Below are positions 3,693-24,046 of a stretch of 64,000 bases of DNA, piece after piece. Under the pieces are notes generated by a model. That model saw only the letters and a program-made list of their open reading frames with translations, was not told the origin of the DNA and made no database searches. Every line of letters begins with the position of its first letter. The first letter of the stretch is position 1. Where the stretch lies: NCBI GenBank assembly GCA_963737905.1, contig CAVTUQ010000001.1:1-64000 (forward strand), read 5' to 3'. A program made the translations under genes and the position numbers. The stretch is from an uncultured delta proteobacterium. Lineage in GTDB: Bacteria > Desulfobacterota > Binatia > UBA9968.

Positions 3693-3896
3693 CTATCGAT
3701 CGCACGCTGAAACATCCAGCAGTTGACCGGCTTCGATGCAGCTCAACCCATACTCTTCCATGATAAGCTTGGCCGCATCCCGCAGGCGATTTTCCCGCAG
3801 CGCCTGTCGTACTGCAGGAGAAATGCTCTGTCCCGTAATAAGCATTGGCACAATTGAGAATTTCATAGAAATACGTCCCTTCTTTACAGTCTCCAT
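3693..3896 (-). CDS. Small hypothetical protein
   Basis: 67-aa ORF that fits between co-oriented genes; no family recognised. Confidence 0.4.
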   Translation of the reverse strand: METVKKGRISMKFSIVPMLITGQSISPAVRQALRENRLRDAAKLIMEEYGLSCIEAGQLLDVSACDR

Positions 3897-3917
3897 TTTT
3901 AACGCGCGCGAGTGACC

Positions 3918-4649
3918 TCAGACCACGCCGCCGCCCGCTTGTACATTCTGTCCCGTGACCCACCGCGCGGCATCGCTCGCGAGAAAGGCTGCGACGTCGG
4001 CCACTTCCTTCGCCGTGCCGACGCGATTGAAGGGCGACAGGCTCGCGCCGTATTCGCGGTACTGCTCAGGCAGCATGTCCGTGTCGGTGAAGCCTGGCGA
4101 CAAGACGTTCACGGTCACATTGCGCGGACCCAGCTCACGGGAAAGCGAACGGGCGAATTGCTCCACTGCCGCCTTGCTGCCGAGGTAAAGCGCCGCATTG
4201 GGAAACATCATCTTCGTGCCTCCAGTGGAAGTGGCGATGATTCGACCGCCATCGCGCACGCGACGGGCGGCTTCCTGCAACGTGAAAAAGACACCCCTCG
4301 TATTGATGTCGAAAACATAGTCGTAATCTGCCTCGGTGTTTTCGATAAGCGGTTTTGAAAGATAGACCCCCGCGTTAGCGATAACAATGTCGAGGGGTCC
4401 TATCGCCTTCTCAGCTTCACCGAACAACCGCCGTACCTCCGCGGGTTTCGAAACGTCGGCCTGAATCCCCATGCCCTTGCCGCCCTTCGCCGAGATCGCT
4501 TTGACGACCTCATGCGCCAGTTGTTCGTTGCGCGCGTAGTTGATGACGACGGTCGCTCCGTCGGCAGCAAGTCTTTCGCCGATCGCTCTGCCGATACCGC
4601 GCGAGCCGCCGGTTACCAGTGCGGTTTTTCCTTCAAGTGCAAGAGACAT
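3918..4649 (-). CDS. SDR family oxidoreductase
   Basis: TGGSRGIG, NAG, YLGSK (YxxxK) and PGFTDT; GGAGG RBS. Confidence 0.95.
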   Translation of the reverse strand: MSLALEGKTALVTGGSRGIGRAIGERLAADGATVVINYARNEQLAHEVVKAISAKGGKGMGIQADVSKPAEVRRLFGEAEKAIGPLDIVIANAGVYLSKPLIENTEADYDYVFDINTRGVFFTLQEAARRVRDGGRIIATSTGGTKMMFPNAALYLGSKAAVEQFARSLSRELGPRNVTVNVLSPGFTDTDMLPEQYREYGASLSPFNRVGTAKEVADVAAFLASDAARWVTGQNVQAGGGVV

Positions 4650-5047: not shown

Positions 5048-5539
5048 ATGCGTCGCGTCCTGTTCGTCTGCACCGGCAACATTTTTCGCAGTCTTACGGC
5101 AGAGGTCGCGCTGCGTCATGTCTTGGGCGCGCAGTGTGACATCCTGGTGGCTTCAGCCGGCACCGAGGATTTTCCGCACGTGGTGAGTCCCTATGTCAAA
5201 GACTATCTTCTCGCCCGAGGACTCGACGTCAGCCGTCATTGCCGGCGGACTTTGACAGTTACAGATACTCCAGGAACCGAGGCCCGGTGATCGCGATGAG
5301 CACGGAGCATCGCTCGGTCTTGACAGAGCGCTTCAATCGTCGGGACGTACCGTTATTCACAGAGGCATGTGGCATTCCCGGCGAGCCGCATTCCCGATGT
5401 CGACGAAGCCGTCAGGGATCATAAGACCAACCCCATCGCGGTGGGCGCGCATATTCGCATGATCATCGACCGAATCATTGAACTGACGCCGCGACTCGCG
5501 AACCGGGTCCTGCTGCAAAAAGGCACGCTTACATCGTAA
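5048..5539 (+). pseudogene. Low-molecular-weight protein tyrosine phosphatase/ArsC family, frameshifted (possibly sequencing error)
   Basis: VLFVCTGNIFRS P-loop and SAGT; VIAM and PDVDEA segments lie in different frames. Confidence 0.7.
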
Positions 5540-5590
5540 CCAAGCCACCTGACCAACGCTCATTGCGATCATCTTTCATATTTTCTTAAT

Positions 5591-6904
5591 ATGGACGGAA
5601 GTTACGCGGGAGACGGCGCGCGATCATCTTTATTTTTCTACGGCTGGTACATCGTCGGTGTCGGTATCCTCGTCAATATCGCCGGGACATTCGCTTTTTC
5701 CAGCACGTTAAGCATTTTTCTAAAACCGATAACCGAGGAACTCGGTGTTTCACGCGGTGCCTTTTCACTGATTCGCACGTTCGAGATTGGCGTCGCCGCG
5801 CTGATCGTGCCGATCCTCGGTCCGTGGATCGACCGCCACGGCGGGCGCGGTGTCCTCGTTCTCGGGGTCCTCATGGAAGGCACCGGATTGCTGCTTTCAG
5901 GCCTGGTGCAAAGCTTCTGGCAGTTCGTTTTGGTCCGCTGCTCGTTAGTGATCGCGGGCGAAGCCCTGCTGGGCTCCCTGGTAATGAACGTCACCATCGC
6001 TCAATGGTTCGTGCGCAAGCGCGGACGCGCCATGGGCATCGCCAATTTGGGAACGGGCATCGCCAAACTCAGTATTCCTCTATGTGCGGCATACTTGTTT
6101 GTGCTTGTCGGCTGGCGCAGCACGTGGGCTATTTTCGGCATCGTCGCGCCGCTTCTAGTCGTCGTGCCGGCGCTCATCTTCATGCGCAGAAGACCAGAGG
6201 ATATCGGACTTTACCCCGATGGCGAACCGCCTCTCCAAAGCTCCGACAAACTGCCAGCTACTAGCGAGATGCCATCTCCCGAGCAACGACGAACCCTGGC
6301 GGCTGAGAAATCATGGAGCCGCTCCGACGTCATACGACTGCCGACCTTCTGGCTCCTGGTAGTCACCTTCGGCATCGCCAGCATCGGCATTGCGGGTCTC
6401 AACCTGCACATTTTTTCTTATGTCACCGACATCGGCTATTCGCCGCTGATAGCCGCGTCCTTCATGGGCACGATCGCGCTCACACAACTCGGCTCAACGC
6501 TCGTCTGGGGCGTGCTCGCCGACCGATTCGATATCAGGAAGGTGTCTTGTGTCCAGTTTATGATCCAGGGAGTGGGGCTGGTGGTCGCTATAACGAGCGC
6601 CGACATCTTTCTCGTTTATGCGGGCTTTTTTCTGTATGGCACCGGTCTGGCCGGGAGCTTCGTGCTTCGCGAGGTGATCTGGGCCAATTTCTTCGGCCGC
6701 GTCTCTCTGGGAACGGTGCGCGGACTGTCGCTTTTCTTTTCCAATCTATTCGCCGCCAGCGGCGCGCCGTTTTTCGGTTTTCTTCACGATCGCATGGGCA
6801 GCTACAACCTGTCGTTTACGATCTTTTCTTGCGCCCTATTCACGTCTTCGCTCTTGATCCTGTTAGCAAAACCGCCGCGCAAAATGATCAGGCCCGAGCT
6901 GTAA
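5591..6904 (+). CDS. MFS transporter (OFA/monocarboxylate-like)
   Basis: 12-TM pattern; GPWIDRHGGR, WFVRKRGRAMG and GVLADRF. Confidence 0.9.
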   Translation: MDGSYAGDGARSSLFFYGWYIVGVGILVNIAGTFAFSSTLSIFLKPITEELGVSRGAFSLIRTFEIGVAALIVPILGPWIDRHGGRGVLVLGVLMEGTGLLLSGLVQSFWQFVLVRCSLVIAGEALLGSLVMNVTIAQWFVRKRGRAMGIANLGTGIAKLSIPLCAAYLFVLVGWRSTWAIFGIVAPLLVVVPALIFMRRRPEDIGLYPDGEPPLQSSDKLPATSEMPSPEQRRTLAAEKSWSRSDVIRLPTFWLLVVTFGIASIGIAGLNLHIFSYVTDIGYSPLIAASFMGTIALTQLGSTLVWGVLADRFDIRKVSCVQFMIQGVGLVVAITSADIFLVYAGFFLYGTGLAGSFVLREVIWANFFGRVSLGTVRGLSLFFSNLFAASGAPFFGFLHDRMGSYNLSFTIFSCALFTSSLLILLAKPPRKMIRPEL

Positions 6905-7089
6905 CTACTTATCACGCCATCAGACAGTCGTCTCTTTGTCTTCGGATTCCGAAATGGTTTCGTACTCGGCATACAGCCGCTGTTAAGGCAAGCATTCGCG
7001 TCGTCACGATTGTCCAAACAATCTTTCCATAAATCGCCGAACGCATTATCCGATGGGTTAAAGATCCAAGCGCGGGTTTGCGGCTTTAA

Positions 7090-7117
7090 ATTGAACATTG
7101 AACACGGAACTTTGAAC
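7090..7117. repeat. Short degenerate heptamer tandem (TTGAACA-like)
   Basis: ttgaaca ttgaaca cggaact ttgaaca between convergent genes. Confidence 0.5.
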
Positions 7118-7141
7118 ATTTTACTCCTGCTACCAACAGGC

Positions 7142-7930
7142 TCAGCTTTTCAGCCGATACCCCGTCCTAAAAATCCATCCTACCACCACCAGGCAGATCA
7201 CAAAAAACCCCAGGGTCATCGCCAGGCTCACCCCCACGCTCACGTCCGAGGTCTCGTAGAAGCTCCAGCGAAAACCGCTGATCAGATAGACCACAGGATT
7301 GAACAAGGTGACCGTCCGCCAGGTCGGCGGCAACATGTCGATGGAATAGAATGCGCCGCCCAGAAAGGTCAGCGGCGCTATGACCAGCATCGGGATGAAC
7401 TGCAGCTGCTCGAACCCTTTCGCCCAGAGACCGATGATGAAGCCGAACAGACTGAAGGTCGTCGCCGTCAGTAACAGGAAGGCGATCATCCACAGCGGGT
7501 GCAGGATCTTGATCGGCACGAACAGGGAGGCCGTGGCCAGGATGACCAGGCCCAGAACGATGGATTTGGTGGCCGCGGCCCCAACGTAAGCGATAACGAT
7601 TTCCAGATAGGAGATCGGCGCGGACAAAAGCTCGTAGATCGTGCCGGTAAACTTCGGGAAATAGATGCCGAACGAAGCGTTGGAGATGCTCTCGGTGAAG
7701 AGCGACAGCATGATCAATCCCGGCACGATGAAGGCGCCATAGGCGACACCGTTCACCTCGGTCATGCGCGACCCGATGGCGGCGCCGAAGACCACGAAAT
7801 AGAGCGACGTGCTGATCACGGGCGCCACCAAGCTCTGCCACACCGTACGCACCGCCCGCGCCAGCTCGAACTTGTAGATAGCCCAGACGCCGTGGCGGTT
7901 AAATGCCGATGGGTTCGTTGCCGTGCTCAT
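7142..7930 (-). CDS. ABC-2 type transporter permease (YadH-like)
   Basis: Six TM segments; [19 protein letters not shown] and [11 protein letters not shown]; overlaps the ATPase stop. Confidence 0.92.
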
Positions 7931-15891: not shown

Positions 15892-16059
15892 AGATCACGA
15901 TGTCACTCTTGCCGTCCGGGTCAAGGTCTTAATCCGATGCGCGTCTTCCCAAATAACGACGGCAGTGAATTGGTTTTTACGTCGGCCGGACGTGTCAGAT
16001 CAAGAGTTTGCGGTAGATGCCAAGGCGGTAGAGAAGGACTTAGCGAAGTTAGAGTTACT
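15892..16059 (+). repeat. Degenerate copy 2 of the SRPBCC gene 3' end
   Basis: AGATCACGATGTCACTCT...GTCTTCCCAAATAACGACGGCAGTGAA...GAGAAGGACTTAGCGAAGTTA with small deletions. Confidence 0.9.
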
Positions 16060-16215
16060 CCAGGAAAAGGGAATCATTGTGTCATCAGGCTAGTTACCCC
16101 GCATTCTTGTTCTTGGACGAGCTATGGATTGTTCCGCCAGTTTTGACGAAAGGAGGTTCGACTAGCGTCGAATAAACGATTCATACAACCGGCGTAACTG
16201 CAGCCCGATCTATTT

Positions 16216-16314
16216 CTACCAGCGTGTGTCCAGCGTGTGTTTTGCGTCGTGGCCGTGTCGCGCTAGCACCGCGCAAAGGCTTGGCGGCAAATGCGCGTCC
16301 ACGAGAAACTTCAT
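16216..16314 (-). pseudogene. Truncated DUF5615 (PIN-like) toxin
   Basis: MKFLVDAHLPPSLCAVLARHGHDAKHTLD then stop; ATGA overlap with DUF433; 11-bp tandem duplication CCAGCGTGTGT at the break. Confidence 0.8.
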
Positions 16315-16550
16315 GTAAGCGGCAAGTGGATGGTTTTAGCTGCTAGCATCCGTCGCGCAAACTCATGACAAGCGAGAATATCTTCGCGCTCCAGGTCCGG
16401 AAACTCCTTCAGCAGATCCTCGATCGTGTCACCGCCGGCAAGATATTCGAGAATAGTCTCTACCGGATAGCGCAGCCCTCGTATGCAAGGCTTGCCGTGA
16501 CATATTTCCGGATCCACAGTGATTCGGGAAAGCAAGCTTTCGTTGGACAT
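16311..16550 (-). CDS. DUF433 family antitoxin
   Basis: RITVDPEICHGKPCIRGLRYPV...LEREDILAC signature. Confidence 0.92.
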   Translation of the reverse strand: MSNESLLSRITVDPEICHGKPCIRGLRYPVETILEYLAGGDTIEDLLKEFPDLEREDILACHEFARRMLAAKTIHLPLT

Positions 16551-16655
16551 AAAGAGAATTCTACACGGCCGGCCGTGAGTTGCAAGTCGGCTAAAGCGGG
16601 GCTAGTCGAACTCAGTGCAATCCGAGACAAGACTCCCAGTACGTTTTTCCAGCTT

Positions 16656-17000
16656 CAGGTTTATGAGTTTGCGTCAAATCCTGAGAACCTGCCCAAATGG
16701 GCCGCAGGACTCAGTGGCTCGATAAAAAAGGTTAACGAGGAGTGGATAGCCAAATCCCCGATGGGAAGAGTGAAAGTTAAATTCGCCGAAAAAAATCAGT
16801 TCGGGGTTTTAGATCACGATGTCACTCTACCATCCGGGGTCAAAGTCTATAACCCTATGCGTGTCTTCCCAAACAACGACGGCAGTGAAGTGGTTTTTAC
16901 ACTCTACCGCCGGCCGGACGCGTCAGATCAAGAGTTTGCGGAAGATGTCAAGGCGGTAGAGAAGGACTTAGTGAAGTTAAAGACGTTACTTGAAAAATAA
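16656..17000 (+). pseudogene. SRPBCC/polyketide cyclase family gene, 5'-truncated (longest copy, copy 3)
   Basis: VYEFASNPENLPKWAAGL...GVLDHDVTLPSG..NPMRV..GSEVVFTL; no plausible start or N-terminal strand upstream. Confidence 0.75.
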
Positions 17001-17792: not shown

Positions 17793-17990
17793 ATGGCGGC
17801 CGATAAGCGAACCACGGTTCGACTGAGCGAAAAGCTTCTTCGCAGAGCGCGTAAAACTCTGAAAGCGTCTACAAACGAAGACGCGGTGACCAAGGCGCTG
17901 CACGAAAGTTTTATCAATCGAGAGATTCACGCCAACTTAAAGGATTTGATCCGCAAAGGCCGCGGCCGGTTCGTTGACGTCTACGACTGA
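17793..17990 (+). CDS. vapB: VapB-like RHH antitoxin
   Basis: KRTTVRLSEKLLRRA...AVTKAL; GGAGG RBS; upstream of a PIN gene. Confidence 0.75.
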   Translation: MAADKRTTVRLSEKLLRRARKTLKASTNEDAVTKALHESFINREIHANLKDLIRKGRGRFVDVYD

Positions 17991-17995
17991 CCATC

Positions 17996-18427
17996 GTGCC
18001 GATTCTGTTAGACACCAATGTCTATCTCTTTGCCATGCGATCGGAAGATGGCGCAGCTTTCTTCGAAACCAGATTCCTACCTTTAGTGTTTCAAACCTTT
18101 CTTGCTGGCGTTGTGGTAGAGGAACTTTACGCCGGCGCATTGGATAGGCAGGGTGTCCGTCTGGTCGAAAGATACGTCGGATCACTCGAACGCGCTAATC
18201 GCGTAATCGCTCCAAATTTTCAGGACTGGAAAGAAGCCGGCAAAATTGTCGCGCGCGTCACGCGGAGAGAGCCCGGTCTTAAGTCGAAGCTGCAACAGAT
18301 TTTAAACGATATCCTATTGGCACTTTGTGCCCGCCGCATCGGCGCGGACCTGTATACTTTCAATCGCGACGATTTCGATCTGATCCGCCGCCATAGGCCA
18401 TTTTCTCTCAAGGTATTAAAACGGTAA
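17996..18427 (+). CDS. vapC: PIN domain toxin
   Basis: ILLDTNV, VVEELY, LNDILLA and YTFNRDDF acidic tetrad. Confidence 0.88.
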   Translation: MPILLDTNVYLFAMRSEDGAAFFETRFLPLVFQTFLAGVVVEELYAGALDRQGVRLVERYVGSLERANRVIAPNFQDWKEAGKIVARVTRREPGLKSKLQQILNDILLALCARRIGADLYTFNRDDFDLIRRHRPFSLKVLKR

Positions 18428-18663: not shown

Positions 18664-18746
18664 GATCGACTAAGCCAGAGCAGCGTAGCTTTACTGCCAA
18701 GGCACGCTCTTCGCGATCTGAATCAAAGTTGGGCAAGTCTGACACG
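18664..18746 (+). repeat. Non-coding direct repeat B, copy 2
   Basis: Matches 17421-17512; terminal motif GGCAAGTCWGACAC recurs at 18828-18841. Confidence 0.9.
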
Positions 18747-18973
18747 CTTGAAGTGCGCATTGCTAAGGTCCGTCCGGGCGCATGCTTACGCGAAGCGGCG
18801 GGTTATGTTCTGAAGTTACGCAACTTAGGCAAGTCAGACACCGAGGGACACGACACTGACATCCAAATCGCGCGGGTCGCCCTGCTAGCACTCGACTTTG
18901 TTTGCCTAAGCGACTCTACTTACGCCGTCTAGCTTCGCGCAGTCGGTCAGCCTATTCTTCGTAAACCTCTCGC

Positions 18974-18996
18974 AGATGATTGAGGGTCAGATCTTT
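18974..18996 (+). repeat. 23-bp direct repeat, left of the JmjC module
   Basis: AGATGATTGAGGGTCAGATCTTT, 22/23 identical to 20921-20943. Confidence 0.8.
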
Positions 18997-19074
18997 TAAA
19001 GACGCGACCCCAATCAGACCCCAATCACGACCTCCGCGGGACACTGAAGACGCGGAGAGGAACGCTTAGAAGGG

Positions 19075-20295
19075 CTAGACGACGTAGGGCTTTTCGGCAG
19101 TTGGCTGACACAGTGTTAGGAAGCCTTCTCGGATAAGGCGTTGGAGCAGCACAAGCTTGCCGGCGTCGTCGAGGTCGCCGGGAAGATCGGCGGCTGAGAA
19201 CTGCTCTGCCTCGGTGATAAACCGCAGTGTCGACTCGGCTTGGGCTGGAACCTGAACCATCTTACCGTGAAAATGCAGCACGACGTCATTCTCCGCCATC
19301 GTCAAGCGCCACTGCAATTTCAGCCTCCTCCAGACTTTAGTTTCAACGTTCAGTCGCTTCGCGGCCTCCAGATCCAGCAAGTGACCGTCTAGCAATGGCT
19401 GCCTGCCAAGAAGGGCCTTCTCCGCCGCGGTTTCAATGAAAGAGACGGGCTCGATCCGTTTATGTAAGAGTGCCAGCAGCTCAGCGAGTCGATTCTTGGC
19501 TAGCACCTTCAGTTCCGCATTAGCGGCAAACCCCAGCGGCAGCGACTCTCGAAAACGCGCATCCTCTTCGATCACCGACTCAGCAGCTTGCAGCACAACC
19601 GCCGCCCAAGTGACGGGAATTACCCCTACGGTCAGATGGAGGGACGCCGAGTCGACTGCCACGGCGTCATGCATAAATCCCCGCGGGATATAGATGAGAT
19701 CTCCGGGACGGAGGTCGAGTTCTTCTACGAGCTCCCCGGGTTCCATTTGCGGATTGTAGGTCTGACCCGGAAGGGGTAATTGGATCGGACCGCGGTATAG
19801 CCGCCAGTGCTTGGATCCTTCAGCCTGGAGCACAAAGACGTCATGCGCGTCGTAGTGAGTATTGAGACCTTTCTCATTTGCCGGAGTAAGGTAAGCGTTG
19901 ATCTGAAAATACGCCGAAAGTTCAGCAGCGAGAGATCGGCATAGTTCCGTCAACGGCTTCCAGCGCTCGTGAAGAAATTGGAGAACAATCGTCGAACCCT
20001 TGCGGTACTCTTCGTACAATGATTCTAACTGTACCGCTGGGCTTCCTAAACGGTTTGCTCTCAGCTGTTTGAGGGGAGTCTCTTTACCCTCATTGAGCAC
20101 GCGGATCTGTGGCGGCCGTAGGCTCGAGGCGGACAAGATGGAGTCCACGCTCTCGAGGGAGAGCAGCCCTCTGTAGTAATCAGGGTCGGTCCTCCGAATG
20201 ATTAGCGGTTGCTTCTCCCAATAGACCCGCCCAAACGTCTCCGCGGCGACGGGGTCGATCAGGTATTTGAAGTCGAAATCAGCGCACTTGATCAT
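19075..20295 (-). CDS. JmjC/Cupin_4 2OG-Fe(II) oxygenase (ROXA/NO66/YcfD-like) with C-terminal winged-helix-like domain
   Basis: YWEKQPL, INAYLTP, HYD..DVFVLQAEGSKHW (HxD) and LRPGDLIYIPRGFMH (distal His); C-terminal LLQRLIREGFL. Confidence 0.9.
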   Translation of the reverse strand: MIKCADFDFKYLIDPVAAETFGRVYWEKQPLIIRRTDPDYYRGLLSLESVDSILSASSLRPPQIRVLNEGKETPLKQLRANRLGSPAVQLESLYEEYRKGSTIVLQFLHERWKPLTELCRSLAAELSAYFQINAYLTPANEKGLNTHYDAHDVFVLQAEGSKHWRLYRGPIQLPLPGQTYNPQMEPGELVEELDLRPGDLIYIPRGFMHDAVAVDSASLHLTVGVIPVTWAAVVLQAAESVIEEDARFRESLPLGFAANAELKVLAKNRLAELLALLHKRIEPVSFIETAAEKALLGRQPLLDGHLLDLEAAKRLNVETKVWRRLKLQWRLTMAENDVVLHFHGKMVQVPAQAESTLRFITEAEQFSAADLPGDLDDAGKLVLLQRLIREGFLTLCQPTAEKPYVV

Positions 20296-20301
20296 CCAGT
20301 C

Positions 20302-20595
20302 TTACAGCCCATCCGTCGGATCGGTGTCAATGCGGTGAATTTCGTCATCCGGGTCTTTATCGAGTATACTGACTCCATCTTGGTAGTCGTGATTGCCGAC
20401 AACGATCTGACTGACGTTCAGGAGACCTGAGGTCGGAACCCGAAAGTCGACGTTGAGGACCCGGATATCTTCGGCGTTCAGAGACCGGCGCTGCGATTGC
20501 TTCACAGCAGAAACCAGTAAAAGCTTCTTCTTGATAGCCATCTCCTTCTTCGGGAGCTTTGTGCCCCCCTGCCGCTCCGGGGATTTTGTTGCCAT
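20302..20595 (-). CDS. Small protein with basic N-terminus and Asp-rich C-terminus (candidate precursor or substrate peptide)
   Basis: Strong RBS GAGGAGG; stops 6 nt before the JmjC start; C-terminal DKDPDD and DTDPTD motifs. Confidence 0.7.
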   Translation of the reverse strand: MATKSPERQGGTKLPKKEMAIKKKLLLVSAVKQSQRRSLNAEDIRVLNVDFRVPTSGLLNVSQIVVGNHDYQDGVSILDKDPDDEIHRIDTDPTDGL

Positions 20596-20920
20596 AACAC
20601 CTCCTCTTCTTCCTTCGCCTTGATATCACAATTGAACGGTTTTTGCTCACACTCGCCGAGTTGCTAGGCCGCGAAGTAAGGAGCGTTAATAACTAGAAGA
20701 TTAAGATACGGAATTGAAACTGCAAAAACCGTCCAAGTAAATTCTCTGCACATTTTTTATCACAATCCGAGCGGTCTAGGCAATGGAATCTGCTCATTGC
20801 ACTCAGCAATTGAGCTACCTGAGCGAAAGTGAGAAAATCAACCGGCTCATAGGAAAGTCAAATTGTAGATTCCTGATCGCTAGACCTATAGACTCAAAAA
20901 GTAAGAGAATAAAACGCGTG

Positions 20921-20943
20921 AGATGATTCAGGGTCAGATCTTT
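20921..20943 (+). repeat. 23-bp direct repeat, right of the JmjC module (REP-like GGGTCAGATCTTT...TTTGAC)
   Basis: AGATGATTCAGGGTCAGATCTTT. Confidence 0.8.
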
Positions 20944-21095
20944 ACTTTTACTTTTGACATTTGAAATTCAATTTTGCGCTGAATCGGAACAGGCCTATCA
21001 AAATATTGGGCTTCGTACCTGCACAACTAGACAGTCTTTCGATTAATCGCCCCGACTGCGTTATCTGTTTAGTCGCAATTGCGGCCCGTGGCTTG

Positions 21096-21356
21096 TCAGA
21101 ATTGCCGTTCGTAGTCCTCGTGGCTGCCTGCCCAGAACCACGTGACTGTGTCACCTTCTAAAATACCCAAGGCCCGTTAGTTTCGCGTGAGACGGATGGA
21201 CCAGATACGTTCTTCTTGTTCAACACATTTGAAATGTAACGATGGGTGGAACGGCGAGTCGCACCAGAGTTGGTAGGATTTTCTTGCGGCCTTCTTAGCC
21301 TCGTCGGGAAGGGTTTGGTAGGCGTCCCAAAAGCTCGGCAGCGTCTTGGATTTCAC
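21096..21356 (-). pseudogene. RelE/ParE-like toxin with an internal stop codon
   Basis: Manual translation MKSKTLPSFWDAY...PFHPSLHFKCV...IWSIRLTRN*RALG...VTWFWAGSHEDYE; TAA at 21177-21179; GTGA overlap with the antitoxin. Confidence 0.85.
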
Positions 21357-21580
21357 AGCTTATCGAAATCCATGTCCGTTGCCTTGCCCGCTGCTATTTC
21401 TTTTCGCGCCTTACGAGCAGCCGCAACCAGCCCGCCTTTTTTGCTTTCTATCAAAGCATCCCATTTCGCCTCCTCTCGAACGTCTTCAACCAAAATTCGA
21501 AGCTCCTCGACAACTCGATCTTGAACCGATTCTGGAAGAGACTCAATCATCTTTGTAGCTGTTTCCGTAGCTTTACTCAT
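21353..21580 (-). CDS. Putative antitoxin
   Basis: 75 aa with EAKWD...AARKARKEIAAGKA; translationally coupled to the toxin. Confidence 0.75.
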   Translation of the reverse strand: MSKATETATKMIESLPESVQDRVVEELRILVEDVREEAKWDALIESKKGGLVAAARKARKEIAAGKATDMDFDKL

Positions 21581-21702: not shown

Positions 21703-22527
21703 TTATACGTACATTCTATTATTCGAAATCTTCTCTCTTTCGAAATTTCCGACCACGCGTTCGCCGACGACATCCTCTGGTCTTAGTTTGCTGCGTTTCT
21801 GATCGGCCGCCTCGGGAATGACGAGTCTGGCTAGCGAAAAAGAGTTCTCCATGCGCCGCTTAGGATGGCCAGATAGATCCCGAAGAGAACGAAGGGTAAT
21901 CAGGAAATTCCTTTTCCACCGGTCACTGAAGGCAATGCCGAAAGGGATCCCAATGACAAAGCCAATGATGTGAGCGACGTAGGCGACGTGGGGATCGTAA
22001 CCCGGTATCCGGCTTTTTGCGGCAACCACGGCGACGTTGTAGACGAAATAAATAATGGCCACCAATCCCTGGGGCGCGAGGAAAAGCCAGGAGAACTTGA
22101 GCGGGCTCACGAGCATCACGCATGCCGCCAGCGTGAAAATCGCGGCCGAGGCGCCCAGCATTCCAGTCCCATGGGGCATAAAAGGAAGGCTAAGAATGAA
22201 GCTTAGTATTCCGCCCGTGAAGAAGACGATCAAGTGCTTACCCGGACCAACGGTTTTCTCCAAAGTGCTTCCGAAGACGAATAGAAAGAGCATATTGCCG
22301 ACAAGGTGCAAGACGTTTGCGTGGACAAACAGGGCCGCCACAAGCGTCCATACTCTTCCCTTCCCGAGATTAGCAAAGCTGACCACAAGATTGTGTTCCG
22401 CAAATATCGGAGGCTGTTGCCAAGCCCAGACGCTGGCCCCGATGCAAGTCAATATGAGTAGCGAGTTGATTCTCAAGGAAGTGTCAGATTTTACCGCACC
22501 TTTGCACTGAAAAGAAAAACGAAACAA
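21703..22527 (-). CDS. Rhomboid family intramembrane serine protease (ends uncertain, probable C-terminal frameshift)
   Basis: FVHANVLHLVGNM, catalytic GASAA and AYVAHIIGF. Confidence 0.85.
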   Translation of the reverse strand: MFRFSFQCKGAVKSDTSLRINSLLILTCIGASVWAWQQPPIFAEHNLVVSFANLGKGRVWTLVAALFVHANVLHLVGNMLFLFVFGSTLEKTVGPGKHLIVFFTGGILSFILSLPFMPHGTGMLGASAAIFTLAACVMLVSPLKFSWLFLAPQGLVAIIYFVYNVAVVAAKSRIPGYDPHVAYVAHIIGFVIGIPFGIAFSDRWKRNFLITLRSLRDLSGHPKRRMENSFSLARLVIPEAADQKRSKLRPEDVVGERVVGNFEREKISNNRMYV

Positions 22528-22888: not shown

Positions 22889-24046
22889 CTAGATTAGACC
22901 CTGGGTTCTGGCAGTTGTGTAAAACTGCTTCCTGGCGATTAATTCGGCTCCTAAACCGAAGAGCATAACCAGAGGGACCACGAGCCATCCGATGAAAGGA
23001 ATAATGGCGAGAAGGTAGTAGACGAACAGCCCCAAAACGAAAGCGGAGGCGCGGCTCGAGGCCGGCCGCAAACGAGCGAGAATGAATTCACCGATTCGGC
23101 CGATCGCGTAGATTCGCGCCCAATAGAGCACGATGAAAAACGCCGTCACGAGGATCAGTCCAAGGGGGATGGCCACAACGGTCGCAAACAGAAGGCTGCA
23201 CACGACCGGCAGCACGACTGCCGTGACAAATCCGATTCCCAATGATGCCCATGGCCTCTCTTTAAGCGTCGTGACCACGGATTGGTGAAATCTTGGCAGA
23301 AAACGCACCGAGAGCAGGCCCAGGATCAACGTAGAGATAAAATTGATCGACACAAACCCAAGCCACGCGAAGAACGCCGCCGGAAAAAGCCGCGGCCTTT
23401 CAGGCGGGACGTTTCTGACGATTTTCCCGCGGATACGCGCTCCTTCGCTGACCGAGGCTTCCCGGCGACTCCAGTAGTTCACGTCCCCCTGAATATCGGC
23501 CCGGGAGGCGATACGAAGCGTCCCCACCGCGGCGTCTACATTGCCTCCGACCCGATTCGCTACAATCAGAGTTCCCGCCGCCGCCTTCACGGAGCCGGTT
23601 AGCGGGGCGGATAAATCGATATTGCCTCCCGCGGCGACGAGCCCGCCGCGCACGACAGCCGAGGGGGCAAGCTCCACCTGGCCGCCGGCAACTGTCAAAT
23701 TTCTCCCGACGCCGCCGCTGATCGTTACCTGGCCGCCCGCAGCCCGCACATCCTGGGAAACGGTTCCCGAGAGACTGACTCTGCCGCCGGCTACGAGAAG
23801 GTCTCCGTTCACCGTGCCGTCGATAACGACCTGGCCGCCAGACGCATAGAGATCACCGTTTATGGTTCCGGAGATCTCCACAGTCCCACCAAAGGCGAAG
23901 TAGTCGCCGTTCACGACCTCGGAGGCCGGAACCGTTACATGACTACGCGATCCACTTCGGCCGGCGCGCTCCTGCGCATTCGCGGTGGCGAAAAAAAACA
24001 CACTCGCGACGATACACGCGGCGCAGGCGATTCTAGTCTTCAACAA
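22889..24046 (-). CDS. Membrane protein with bactofilin/polymer-forming beta-repeat domain
   Basis: Signal peptide, about 15-aa repeats (GGxVxIxGTVxGD) and five C-terminal TM helices. Confidence 0.8.
   Translation of the reverse strand: MLKTRIACAACIVASVFFFATANAQERAGRSGSRSHVTVPASEVVNGDYFAFGGTVEISGTINGDLYASGGQVVIDGTVNGDLLVAGGRVSLSGTVSQDVRAAGGQVTISGGVGRNLTVAGGQVELAPSAVVRGGLVAAGGNIDLSAPLTGSVKAAAGTLIVANRVGGNVDAAVGTLRIASRADIQGDVNYWSRREASVSEGARIRGKIVRNVPPERPRLFPAAFFAWLGFVSINFISTLILGLLSVRFLPRFHQSVVTTLKERPWASLGIGFVTAVVLPVVCSLLFATVVAIPLGLILVTAFFIVLYWARIYAIGRIGEFILARLRPASSRASAFVLGLFVYYLLAIIPFIGWLVVPLVMLFGLGAELIARKQFYTTARTQGLI

Follow-up and report, generated by a model that had tools for sequence, protein, structure and literature searches.

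A gene pair for a small acidic protein and a JmjC oxygenase

The window analyzed here is a 64,000-nt stretch of DNA from an uncultured delta proteobacterium (GTDB lineage Desulfobacterota, Binatia, UBA9968; assembly GCA_963737905.1, contig CAVTUQ010000001.1, positions 1 to 64,000). On its minus strand, at 19075-20595, two adjacent genes encode a 97-aa acidic protein and a JmjC-type Fe(II)/2-oxoglutarate (2OG) oxygenase. The pair is probably a two-gene, leader-guided cassette similar to those that produce peptides made on ribosomes and modified after translation (RiPPs), the 97-aa protein being the dedicated substrate of the oxygenase; that the protein is a substrate or partner of the enzyme in one way or another is quite probable. 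A leader-guided pair is the most economical explanation: it agrees with the conservation of the docking motif, with the hypervariability of the repeat core, with an oxygenase that is intact and with export or processing that differs by lineage. In our best reading, the pair belongs to a RiPP-like system in which both the class-defining enzyme and the precursor family are new and whose chemistry we infer.

The gene for the precursor-like peptide (20302-20595, minus strand, from the ORF list) starts with ATG and ends with a TAA stop codon at 20304-20302. After an intergenic spacer of 6 nt (20296-20301, minus strand, read from the sequence), the ATG of the oxygenase gene follows at 20295-20293; this gene (19075-20295, minus strand) encodes 406 amino acids and was assigned to JmjC_2 based on its Pfam match, its invariant residues and a structural model. 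A strong Shine-Dalgarno-like site, GAGGAGGTG (20596-20612, minus strand, read from the sequence), is located 2 nt 5' of the peptide start codon, so that the minus strand reads GAGGAGGTG, TT and ATG, with a rather short spacer of 4 nt between GGAGG and ATG. The coordinates and GAGGAGGTG agree with the first-pass annotation of this DNA, which had described a small ORF with a strong ribosome-binding site ending 6 nt ahead of an intact JmjC gene. The 6-nt spacing suggests translational coupling of the two genes. The spacing is equally tight in the related locus L006, from a Rokubacteria genome with an 82% identical enzyme, where the gap to the JmjC match is 7. A promoter/terminator scan was uninformative, with no sigma-70-like promoter found on the minus strand within 18700-21000.

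Similarity between the window and L006 is confined to 19115-20617. The conserved unit is therefore the gene pair itself. The cluster had been described as minimal or partial; its description as minimal is borne out, protease and exporter genes being found only in other lineages.

The peptide shows the layout of a leader followed by a core. Residues 1-37 are basic, and the Lys/Arg-rich N-terminal half reported earlier is borne out by 11 Lys/Arg among the first 40 residues. At about residues 38-46 there is a leader motif, S-L-N-A-E-D-I-R-V, followed by a conserved VDFRVPTSGLL. The Asp-rich core (about residues 67-97) contains every tail element that had been listed, namely NHDYQDG, LDKDPDDE and IDTDPTDG, with two DxDPxD units. 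In the subtype to which the window belongs, the basic N-terminal extension is conserved in character (L006, L012, L014, L088, L089 and L091). The hydrophobic stretch LLLVSAV of the window peptide was evaluated as a possible Sec signal, an idea that was dropped because the stretch spans 7 residues, precedes the motif and does not keep its hydrophobicity in L012 or L014.

The enzyme matches Pfam JmjC_2 (PF08007) with E 5.7e-28 and 97.4 bits against a cut-off of 22; no NCBIfam model matched it. The Fe(II) triad HxD...H (H147-x-D149...H209) and the 2OG-binding Lys (K162) are both present and show no variation across 30 aligned homologues. In the AlphaFold2 model (mean pLDDT 89.5, pTM 0.83), a JmjC barrel is followed by a domain made of helices (about residues 230-314) and, at the C-terminus, by a beta-beta-beta-alpha-alpha domain (about 321-394), the latter modelled with strands at 329-334, 337-342 and 345-350 and helices at 351-362 and 377-389. 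The HxD...H site and the winged-helix-like C-terminal domain noticed in the first pass correspond to the invariant H147/D149/H209 and to this modelled domain.

Conservation of the pairing across phyla

A scan of species genomes with the enzyme returned 596 JmjC relatives, and the best 80 of the 596 were analyzed (loci L006-L085). A leader-motif model of 16 positions was built from 21 of these loci, the window not being a seed, and was run over 11,828 stop-to-stop ORFs from the 80 loci and from 15-25 kb of the window. At E<=10 it gave 60 matches, in 54 of the 80 loci and in the window. The 21 seed loci match by construction; among the 59 non-seed loci, 33 have a match. The motif common to the peptide ORFs has the approximate consensus (S/T)-L-x-x-(D/E)-(D/E)-I-x-(V/T).

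Of the 60 matches, three do not represent Asp-rich neighbours: L014 has two (at 651-776), and L075 has one (at 3821-4288). The remaining matches are Asp-rich ORFs flanking the JmjC gene, mostly upstream on the same strand with a gap of 7-509 nt, but downstream in five loci (L017, L019, L020, L074 and L076) and divergent in seven (L043, L044, L045, L061, L064, L069 and L082). An initial crude filter for short Asp-rich upstream ORFs had selected 34 of the 80 loci. A second-round motif model with 6 seeds was poorer (31 loci) and was used only for three added loci (L023, L027 and L078), which, together with L072, recognized by eye, bring the number of loci with a peptide ORF to at least 58 of 80. 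Members with the motif and an Asp-repeat core were retrieved in Actinomycetota, Methylomirabilota/Rokubacteria, Chloroflexota, Acidobacteriota, Pseudomonadota, Myxococcota and Bacteroidota.

In a second metagenome scan with the enzyme, 6 loci were obtained, and 3 of the 4 assessable ones carry a peptide ORF. In these three (L088, L089 and L091; JmjC proteins 56-57% identical), an ORF of about 100 aa with a basic N-terminus and a DxDPxD core lies 31-32 nt upstream. No peptide ORF was found in L090 by the filter; L087 has only 81 nt of upstream sequence, and L092 is a fragment.

We further placed 79 enzymes in a tree (IQ-TREE in quick mode, with SH-aLRT support only; related sequences are not independent observations). 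The window enzyme groups with that of L006 (SH-aLRT 100) within a clade of 21 rows from Rokubacteria/Methylomirabilota and Actinomycetota (SH-aLRT 100), in which a signal-less precursor is present in 20 of the 21. The one row that lacks it, L022, carries a tandem pair of JmjC genes. The signal-bearing types are found among the other 58 rows, where the four lipoprotein-type rows from Bacteroidota form one clade.

Judged from these comparisons, the pairing of peptide and JmjC genes is not due to chance. Inspection of JmjC homologues for linked short Asp-rich ORFs, which the first-pass annotation had proposed as a check, was positive at 54 of the 80 loci plus 4 more and in 20 of the 21 members of the window's clade; the conserved linkage supports, at the level of gene context, the earlier proposal that the peptide is the dedicated substrate of the enzyme.

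Two precursor genes with differing cores stand side by side in L026 (3262-3808), L074 (1261-2580) and L043 (2030-3122, minus strand), as in multi-precursor RiPP clusters. The second JmjC gene of a tandem was located at 6524-7771 in L022 and at 5226-6110 in L034.

Precursor cores, export signals and the proposed chemistry

Anatomy was compared in a set of 57 precursor ORFs. A conserved leader and a variable core are both present: the 9-residue motif is shared across phyla, and the cores are lineage-specific Asp repeats, such as DNDP(T/S)DPV in two copies in Streptomyces, SDxDPTDP-x-GGG in Paracoccaceae, DPDKKK runs in Acidobacteriota, DGTDG runs in Chloroflexota and CSDSDPxDPGG in Sandaracinaceae. 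DxD occurs in 56 of the 57 cores, with two or more copies in 50. The number of cores that lack a given residue is 32 for His, 25 for Tyr, 18 for Asn, 39 for Cys, 6 for Lys/Arg and 2 for Pro; no residue other than Asp is shared by all 57.

After the motif, 29 of the 57 precursors (from Acidobacteriota, Pseudomonadota and Myxococcota) have RR and a hydrophobic stretch of at least 12 residues. Five have the hydrophobic stretch only, four of them from Bacteroidota (three with a lipobox-like pattern) and one from Acidobacteriota (L066). The other 23, from Actinomycetota, Chloroflexota and Rokubacteria and including the window peptide, have neither. In Gram-negative lineages, the motif is positioned directly ahead of a twin-arginine (TAT) or lipoprotein signal. 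When 10 diverse precursors were compared with Pfam and NCBIfam, no family scored above its cut-off except the TAT signal in L065, which passes TIGR01409 TAT_signal with 22.5 bits against 16.7.

We propose that the enzyme docks on (S/T)-L-x-x-(D/E)-(D/E)-I-x-(V/T), represented in the window by SLNAEDIRV plus VDFRVPTSGLL, probably via its C-terminal beta-beta-beta-alpha-alpha domain, and that the JmjC site, with Fe(II), 2OG and O2, would then oxidize residues in the C-terminal Asp-repeat core (two DxDPxD units in the window). The likeliest chemistry would be beta-hydroxylation of Asp, producing a poly-(hydroxy)aspartate peptide able to chelate metals, for example Ca2+ or Fe3+. Asp is favoured over His as the target because Asp alone is present in every core. 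Hydroxylation at its beta-carbon is the best guess because Asp is universal in the cores, JmjC-type enzymes such as FIH can hydroxylate Asp, and hydroxy-Asp is a known metal ligand. Asp may be the modified residue and hydroxylation the change, with a probability somewhat below even; binding of metal by the product is suggested tentatively.

In Gram-negative relatives, the docking motif would form part of the n-region of the twin-arginine or lipoprotein signal. Because the motif immediately precedes twin-arginine signals, modification presumably takes place in the cytoplasm and is followed by export, the leader with its motif being lost to signal peptidase. The Rokubacteria-type peptide of the window has a basic N-terminal extension in the place of a signal.

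Another possibility is that the two genes do form a substrate-enzyme pair, with a different chemistry: hydroxylation of Pro in DP units, oxidative cross-linking or cleavage of the backbone. Of the 57 cores, 55 contain Pro and 49 contain DP. Cys and Tyr are abundant in some of them (L013, L015 and Sandaracinaceae loci), and a 2OG-dependent Cys-Tyr cross-link is cited, and backbone cleavage by HExxH enzymes described, in PMC12636437. However, two Bacteroidota cores (L029 and L071) lack Pro, 39 of the 57 lack Cys, and Asp alone is found in all. We consider these chemistries, taken together, unlikely, but they are the most credible of the alternatives.

Predicted binding of the peptide by the enzyme

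When co-folded, each with its alignment, the enzyme and the peptide obtained a median score of 0.38, against 0.00 for the highest-scoring of 3 controls. Of 157 solved complexes, 116 attain the mark used for such pairs, compared with 2 of 215 mismatched pairs; at values of 0.60 or less it covers only 18 of the 157 solved complexes, plus both passing mismatches. The runs share at least 46% of contacts, with a pLDDT of at least 45 for the partner. Co-folding had been proposed together with the original prediction; its outcome speaks for association by the score of 0.38 against 0.00 for the control, which is weak support, and no interface was reported.

The strands-then-helices layout of the modelled C-terminal domain would fit a role in binding the leader. 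Fusions of RRE-like domains to JmjC PF08007 have been described (Bregman et al., mSystems 2025, PMC12710340), and the window enzyme has three strands followed by helices (residues 329-389), a likeness seen in the model only. In the available portion of that paper, no precursor family or chemistry is named for those contexts.

Linkage and a weak co-fold indicate association, not catalysis, so the acidic protein could also be a partner of the oxygenase (a regulator, an inhibitor or a chaperone-like subunit) while the oxygenase acts elsewhere. In the window type, the N-terminal two-thirds of the protein is indeed more conserved than the tail. On the other hand, the number of repeats and the core sequence vary freely by lineage around a constant motif, and 34 of the 57 precursors bear export signals after the motif, which suits an exported cargo more than a subunit that remains in the cytoplasm; in Streptomyces-type loci, a peptidase and an exporter accompany the pair. 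A role as partner only is therefore improbable.

Relation of the oxygenase to ribosomal oxygenases

NO66 and MINA53 hydroxylate His, and YcfD hydroxylates Arg, in ribosomal proteins, the residues concerned being His of RPL8 or RPL27A and Arg of uL16. The enzyme of the window could be an ordinary ribosomal-protein hydroxylase of the YcfD/RoxA, NO66 or MINA53 type, with the small ORF as an unrelated neighbour. Its domain family and three-domain build are those of ribosomal oxygenases (ROX), and many of its more than 1300 homologues are automatically named 'ribosomal protein L16 Arg81 hydroxylase', as it is in the source annotation.

Based on Foldseek searches with the model, the best structural match is NO66 (4e4h_D; E 5.4e-28, TMq 0.71, about 25% identity). 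Alignments to NO66 span 438-448 columns with TMq 0.68-0.71, in agreement with a three-domain build. MINA53 follows (E 1e-24), and B. subtilis YxbC is also among the best structural matches. The triad aligns with the HYD...H iron site of MINA53 and NO66. E. coli YcfD is less similar, with TMq 0.51-0.52 and 16-18% identity in structural alignment and a sequence match of E 4.4e-10 across only 84 residues. The enzyme therefore has the build of a ribosomal oxygenase without being a near relative of the bacterial L16 hydroxylase.

The window enzyme is the sole PF08007 protein encoded in its 6.7-Mb genome. At E<=1e-20, no match to it was found in 24 genomes of the same family, two of which belong to the same genus, and the same order yielded only two matches, 34% identical. 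By this distribution, its gene is an accessory gene, whereas a housekeeping modifier of the ribosome would be expected to be shared. Compared with the known ROX enzymes (human NO66 and MINA53, E. coli YcfD/RoxA and a Rhodothermus YcfD-like protein), it has the same PF08007 domain, HxD...H triad and three-domain build, but its gene is accessory and is paired with a small acidic ORF of its own; in addition, the window family reads HYD(T/A)HD where MINA53 has HYDDVE and NO66 has HYDDIE. Its absence from the 24 same-family genomes and the presence of its own peptide partner argue against a ribosomal-protein substrate, at least from context. With the low similarity to YcfD and a small ORF linked across phyla with its motif conserved, ordinary ribosomal hydroxylation is very improbable.

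Selection on the peptide gene

Only 4 homologues of the peptide were found in a collection of 5.8 billion clusters (60-93% identity in the alignment). All four share its start and length; variation among them is almost absent from the N-terminal two-thirds and greater in the acidic tail. Between the peptide ORF and the orthologous ORF of L006, dN/dS was 0.245 at dS 0.67 (one pair only); the corresponding dN/dS for the enzyme gene was 0.196. The peptide ORF is under purifying selection. No family of Pfam or NCBIfam matches it, no relative emerged when metagenomes were scanned with the peptide alignment, and an ESM Atlas lookup gave no usable match. Among the sequencing runs listed for this DNA, 20 are of DNA type and none is of RNA.

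That the small ORF matches no Pfam or NCBIfam family might suggest that it is not a real gene, but the homologues with the same start and length, the dN/dS value, the strong Shine-Dalgarno-like site and the analogous ORFs across phyla make this extremely improbable.

The tail of one of the homologues, P0004, equals what an overlapping ORF (L006 3894-4004, plus strand) encodes in an alternative frame at the end of the peptide gene of L006, so P0004 is a frameshifted or mis-called copy of the peptide.

Weight of the evidence for a leader-guided cassette

Several observations weigh against the proposed cassette or against parts of it. As to the motif, 21 of the 54 positive loci had served as seeds for the model, the match of the window peptide taken alone is weak (E 0.41), and the motif region deviates in L088, L089 and L091, although their basic N-terminus and core are kept. 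As to the linkage, no such ORF was found in 22 of the 80 loci. In six of them, the sequence upstream is shorter than 650 nt; the others include Nostoc and Chamaesiphon loci, some of them beside a LanM-like gene, as well as some from Sandaracinaceae and Bacteroidota. The pass in co-folding was weak and came without a reported interface. As to the chemistry, the frequency of Pro in the cores (55 of 57, with DP in 49) makes Pro a possible target, and we know of no member of the NO66/MINA53/YcfD subfamily that hydroxylates Asp. Finally, no linked protease, exporter or signal peptide that could serve leader removal and export was found in the window, and without a linked protease or exporter the window peptide may never be released as a natural product.

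A wider conjecture joins these elements. There may be a large, pan-bacterial and as yet undescribed RiPP class in which a ROX-type JmjC enzyme is the sole maturase and reads a 9-residue motif built into the n-region of Gram-negative TAT or lipoprotein signals. Multiple Asp residues would be hydroxylated in the cytoplasm, export would follow with loss of the leader to signal peptidase, and metal binders of poly-(beta-hydroxy)aspartate, either secreted or anchored to the surface, would result; eukaryotic protein hydroxylases of the NO66 and MINA53 type would then share ancestry with a bacterial peptide-maturation enzyme. We regard the conjecture as a whole as speculative and rather unlikely.

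Comparison with known systems

JmjC hydroxylases have been found in other RiPP pathways. CzlI of the curacozole pathway hydroxylates Phe, with an activity that depends on the flanking sequence (PMC11575548), and BipG of the biphenomycin pathway hydroxylates Orn (PMC12707348). Like the enzyme proposed here, both are Fe/2OG JmjC-type hydroxylases acting on ribosomal precursor peptides. As described in the available text, however, they tailor peptides within multi-enzyme clusters (azole-forming machinery; rSAM, MNIO and other enzymes), whereas here the cores consist of Asp repeats and the JmjC protein would be the class-defining enzyme, with no other beside it; the distinction is drawn from those descriptions.

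Hydroxylation of Asp in RiPPs by HExxH enzymes and MNIOs is treated in PMC12636437 and PMC13060819. The reaction proposed here would be that of the known Asp/Asn beta-hydroxylases, namely FIH (itself a JmjC protein), AspH, CinX, alpha-KG-HExxH enzymes and MNIOs, but these belong to other enzyme families or to a distant JmjC branch (TMq 0.32 for FIH). To our knowledge, no hydroxylase of the FIH, AspH, CinX, HExxH or MNIO type occurs with Asp-repeat precursors of this kind.

The bufferins, attributed to Leprevost et al. in 2024, are reportedly MNIO-modified RiPP metallophores with Cys targets that have an export signal in place of a classical leader. The analogy lies in the export signal replacing the leader and in a metal-binding product. 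In the family described here, the signal, where present, is mostly of the twin-arginine type, the docking motif stands ahead of it, and the enzyme is a JmjC protein, not an MNIO.

No published description of a JmjC enzyme with Asp-repeat precursors was found in a search of full-text literature, which leaves subscription journals mostly outside; within the same scope, the search agrees with the earlier statement that this is not a described class. The apparent novelties are a docking motif found across phyla, the coupling of this motif to export signals, and the Rokubacteria subtype, which is without an iron-sulfur partner.

If the pairing is functional, a ROX-type JmjC oxygenase would be a new class-defining enzyme type for ribosomal peptide natural products, and the docking motif plus the Asp-repeat core would provide a simple bioinformatic handle for the family. 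Bacterial relatives of NO66 and MINA53 would gain a defined, genetically linked substrate, so that their specificity could be tested directly. The docking motif inside the TAT signal suggests a compact answer to the problem of leader removal and export, and poly-hydroxyaspartate peptides would be plausible binders of Ca2+ or Fe3+ in soil bacteria. The window alone contributes a smaller gain, as one member of the signal-less, basic-N-terminus subtype without a ferredoxin-like partner.

Gene neighbourhoods

Neighbouring genes differ among lineages. In the first clustering of neighbours, clusters 1, 2, 5 and 8 were antisense ORFs of GC-rich genomes that overlap the JmjC gene. Streptomyces-type loci have a convergent Peptidase_S9 gene (a cluster found in 7 loci) and ABC exporters (a cluster found in 12 loci; among 28 downstream ORFs scanned, 5 were of this kind). 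A sucrase/ferredoxin-like gene (PF06999) follows the JmjC gene in 2 of the 80 loci, L049 and L058, both from Chloroflexota, and is not present in the window. In two Inquilinaceae-type loci (L027 5086-6846 and L031 5524-7197), the JmjC gene is followed by a fusion gene for a 2Fe-2S ferredoxin and an adenylate/guanylate cyclase.

In the cyanobacterial locus L060, a LanM-like DUF4135 gene (5193-7166) is located immediately downstream of the JmjC gene. Because the two genes adjoin, part of the JmjC family may act as tailoring enzymes in lanthipeptide clusters.

In L006, an integrase-like gene lies directly 3' of the cassette. In the window, a DUF433 gene (16311-16550, minus strand) and a VapB-like/PIN pair (17793-17990 and 17996-18427, plus strand) are found just downstream of the cassette; because these genes adjoin it, the cassette seems to lie in an accessory region rich in toxin-antitoxin-type genes. 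On the other side, two small ORFs of 59 and 75 aa (21177-21356 and 21353-21580, minus strand) overlap by 4 nt in a toxin-antitoxin-like layout and have no Pfam match.

A gene for a rhomboid-family intramembrane protease (PF01694, E 1.5e-26; 21703-22527, minus strand) is situated 1.1 kb upstream of the cassette. It was considered as a source of a leader protease and rejected, since the small toxin-antitoxin-like ORFs intervene and there is no synteny in L006; the rhomboid gene is probably unrelated to the cassette. Beyond it, a 385-aa protein without a Pfam match (22889-24046, minus strand) has an N-terminal signal-like stretch, long Gly/Val-rich repeats and a C-terminal multi-pass hydrophobic region.

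Near the DUF433 gene, an ORF of 211 aa (16365-17000, plus strand) has a weak match, below the cut-off, to Polyketide_cyc2. Two short, overlapping ORFs, 15937-16146 and 15965-16093, repeat its C-terminal part in two frames and look like a frameshifted partial duplicate of that gene.

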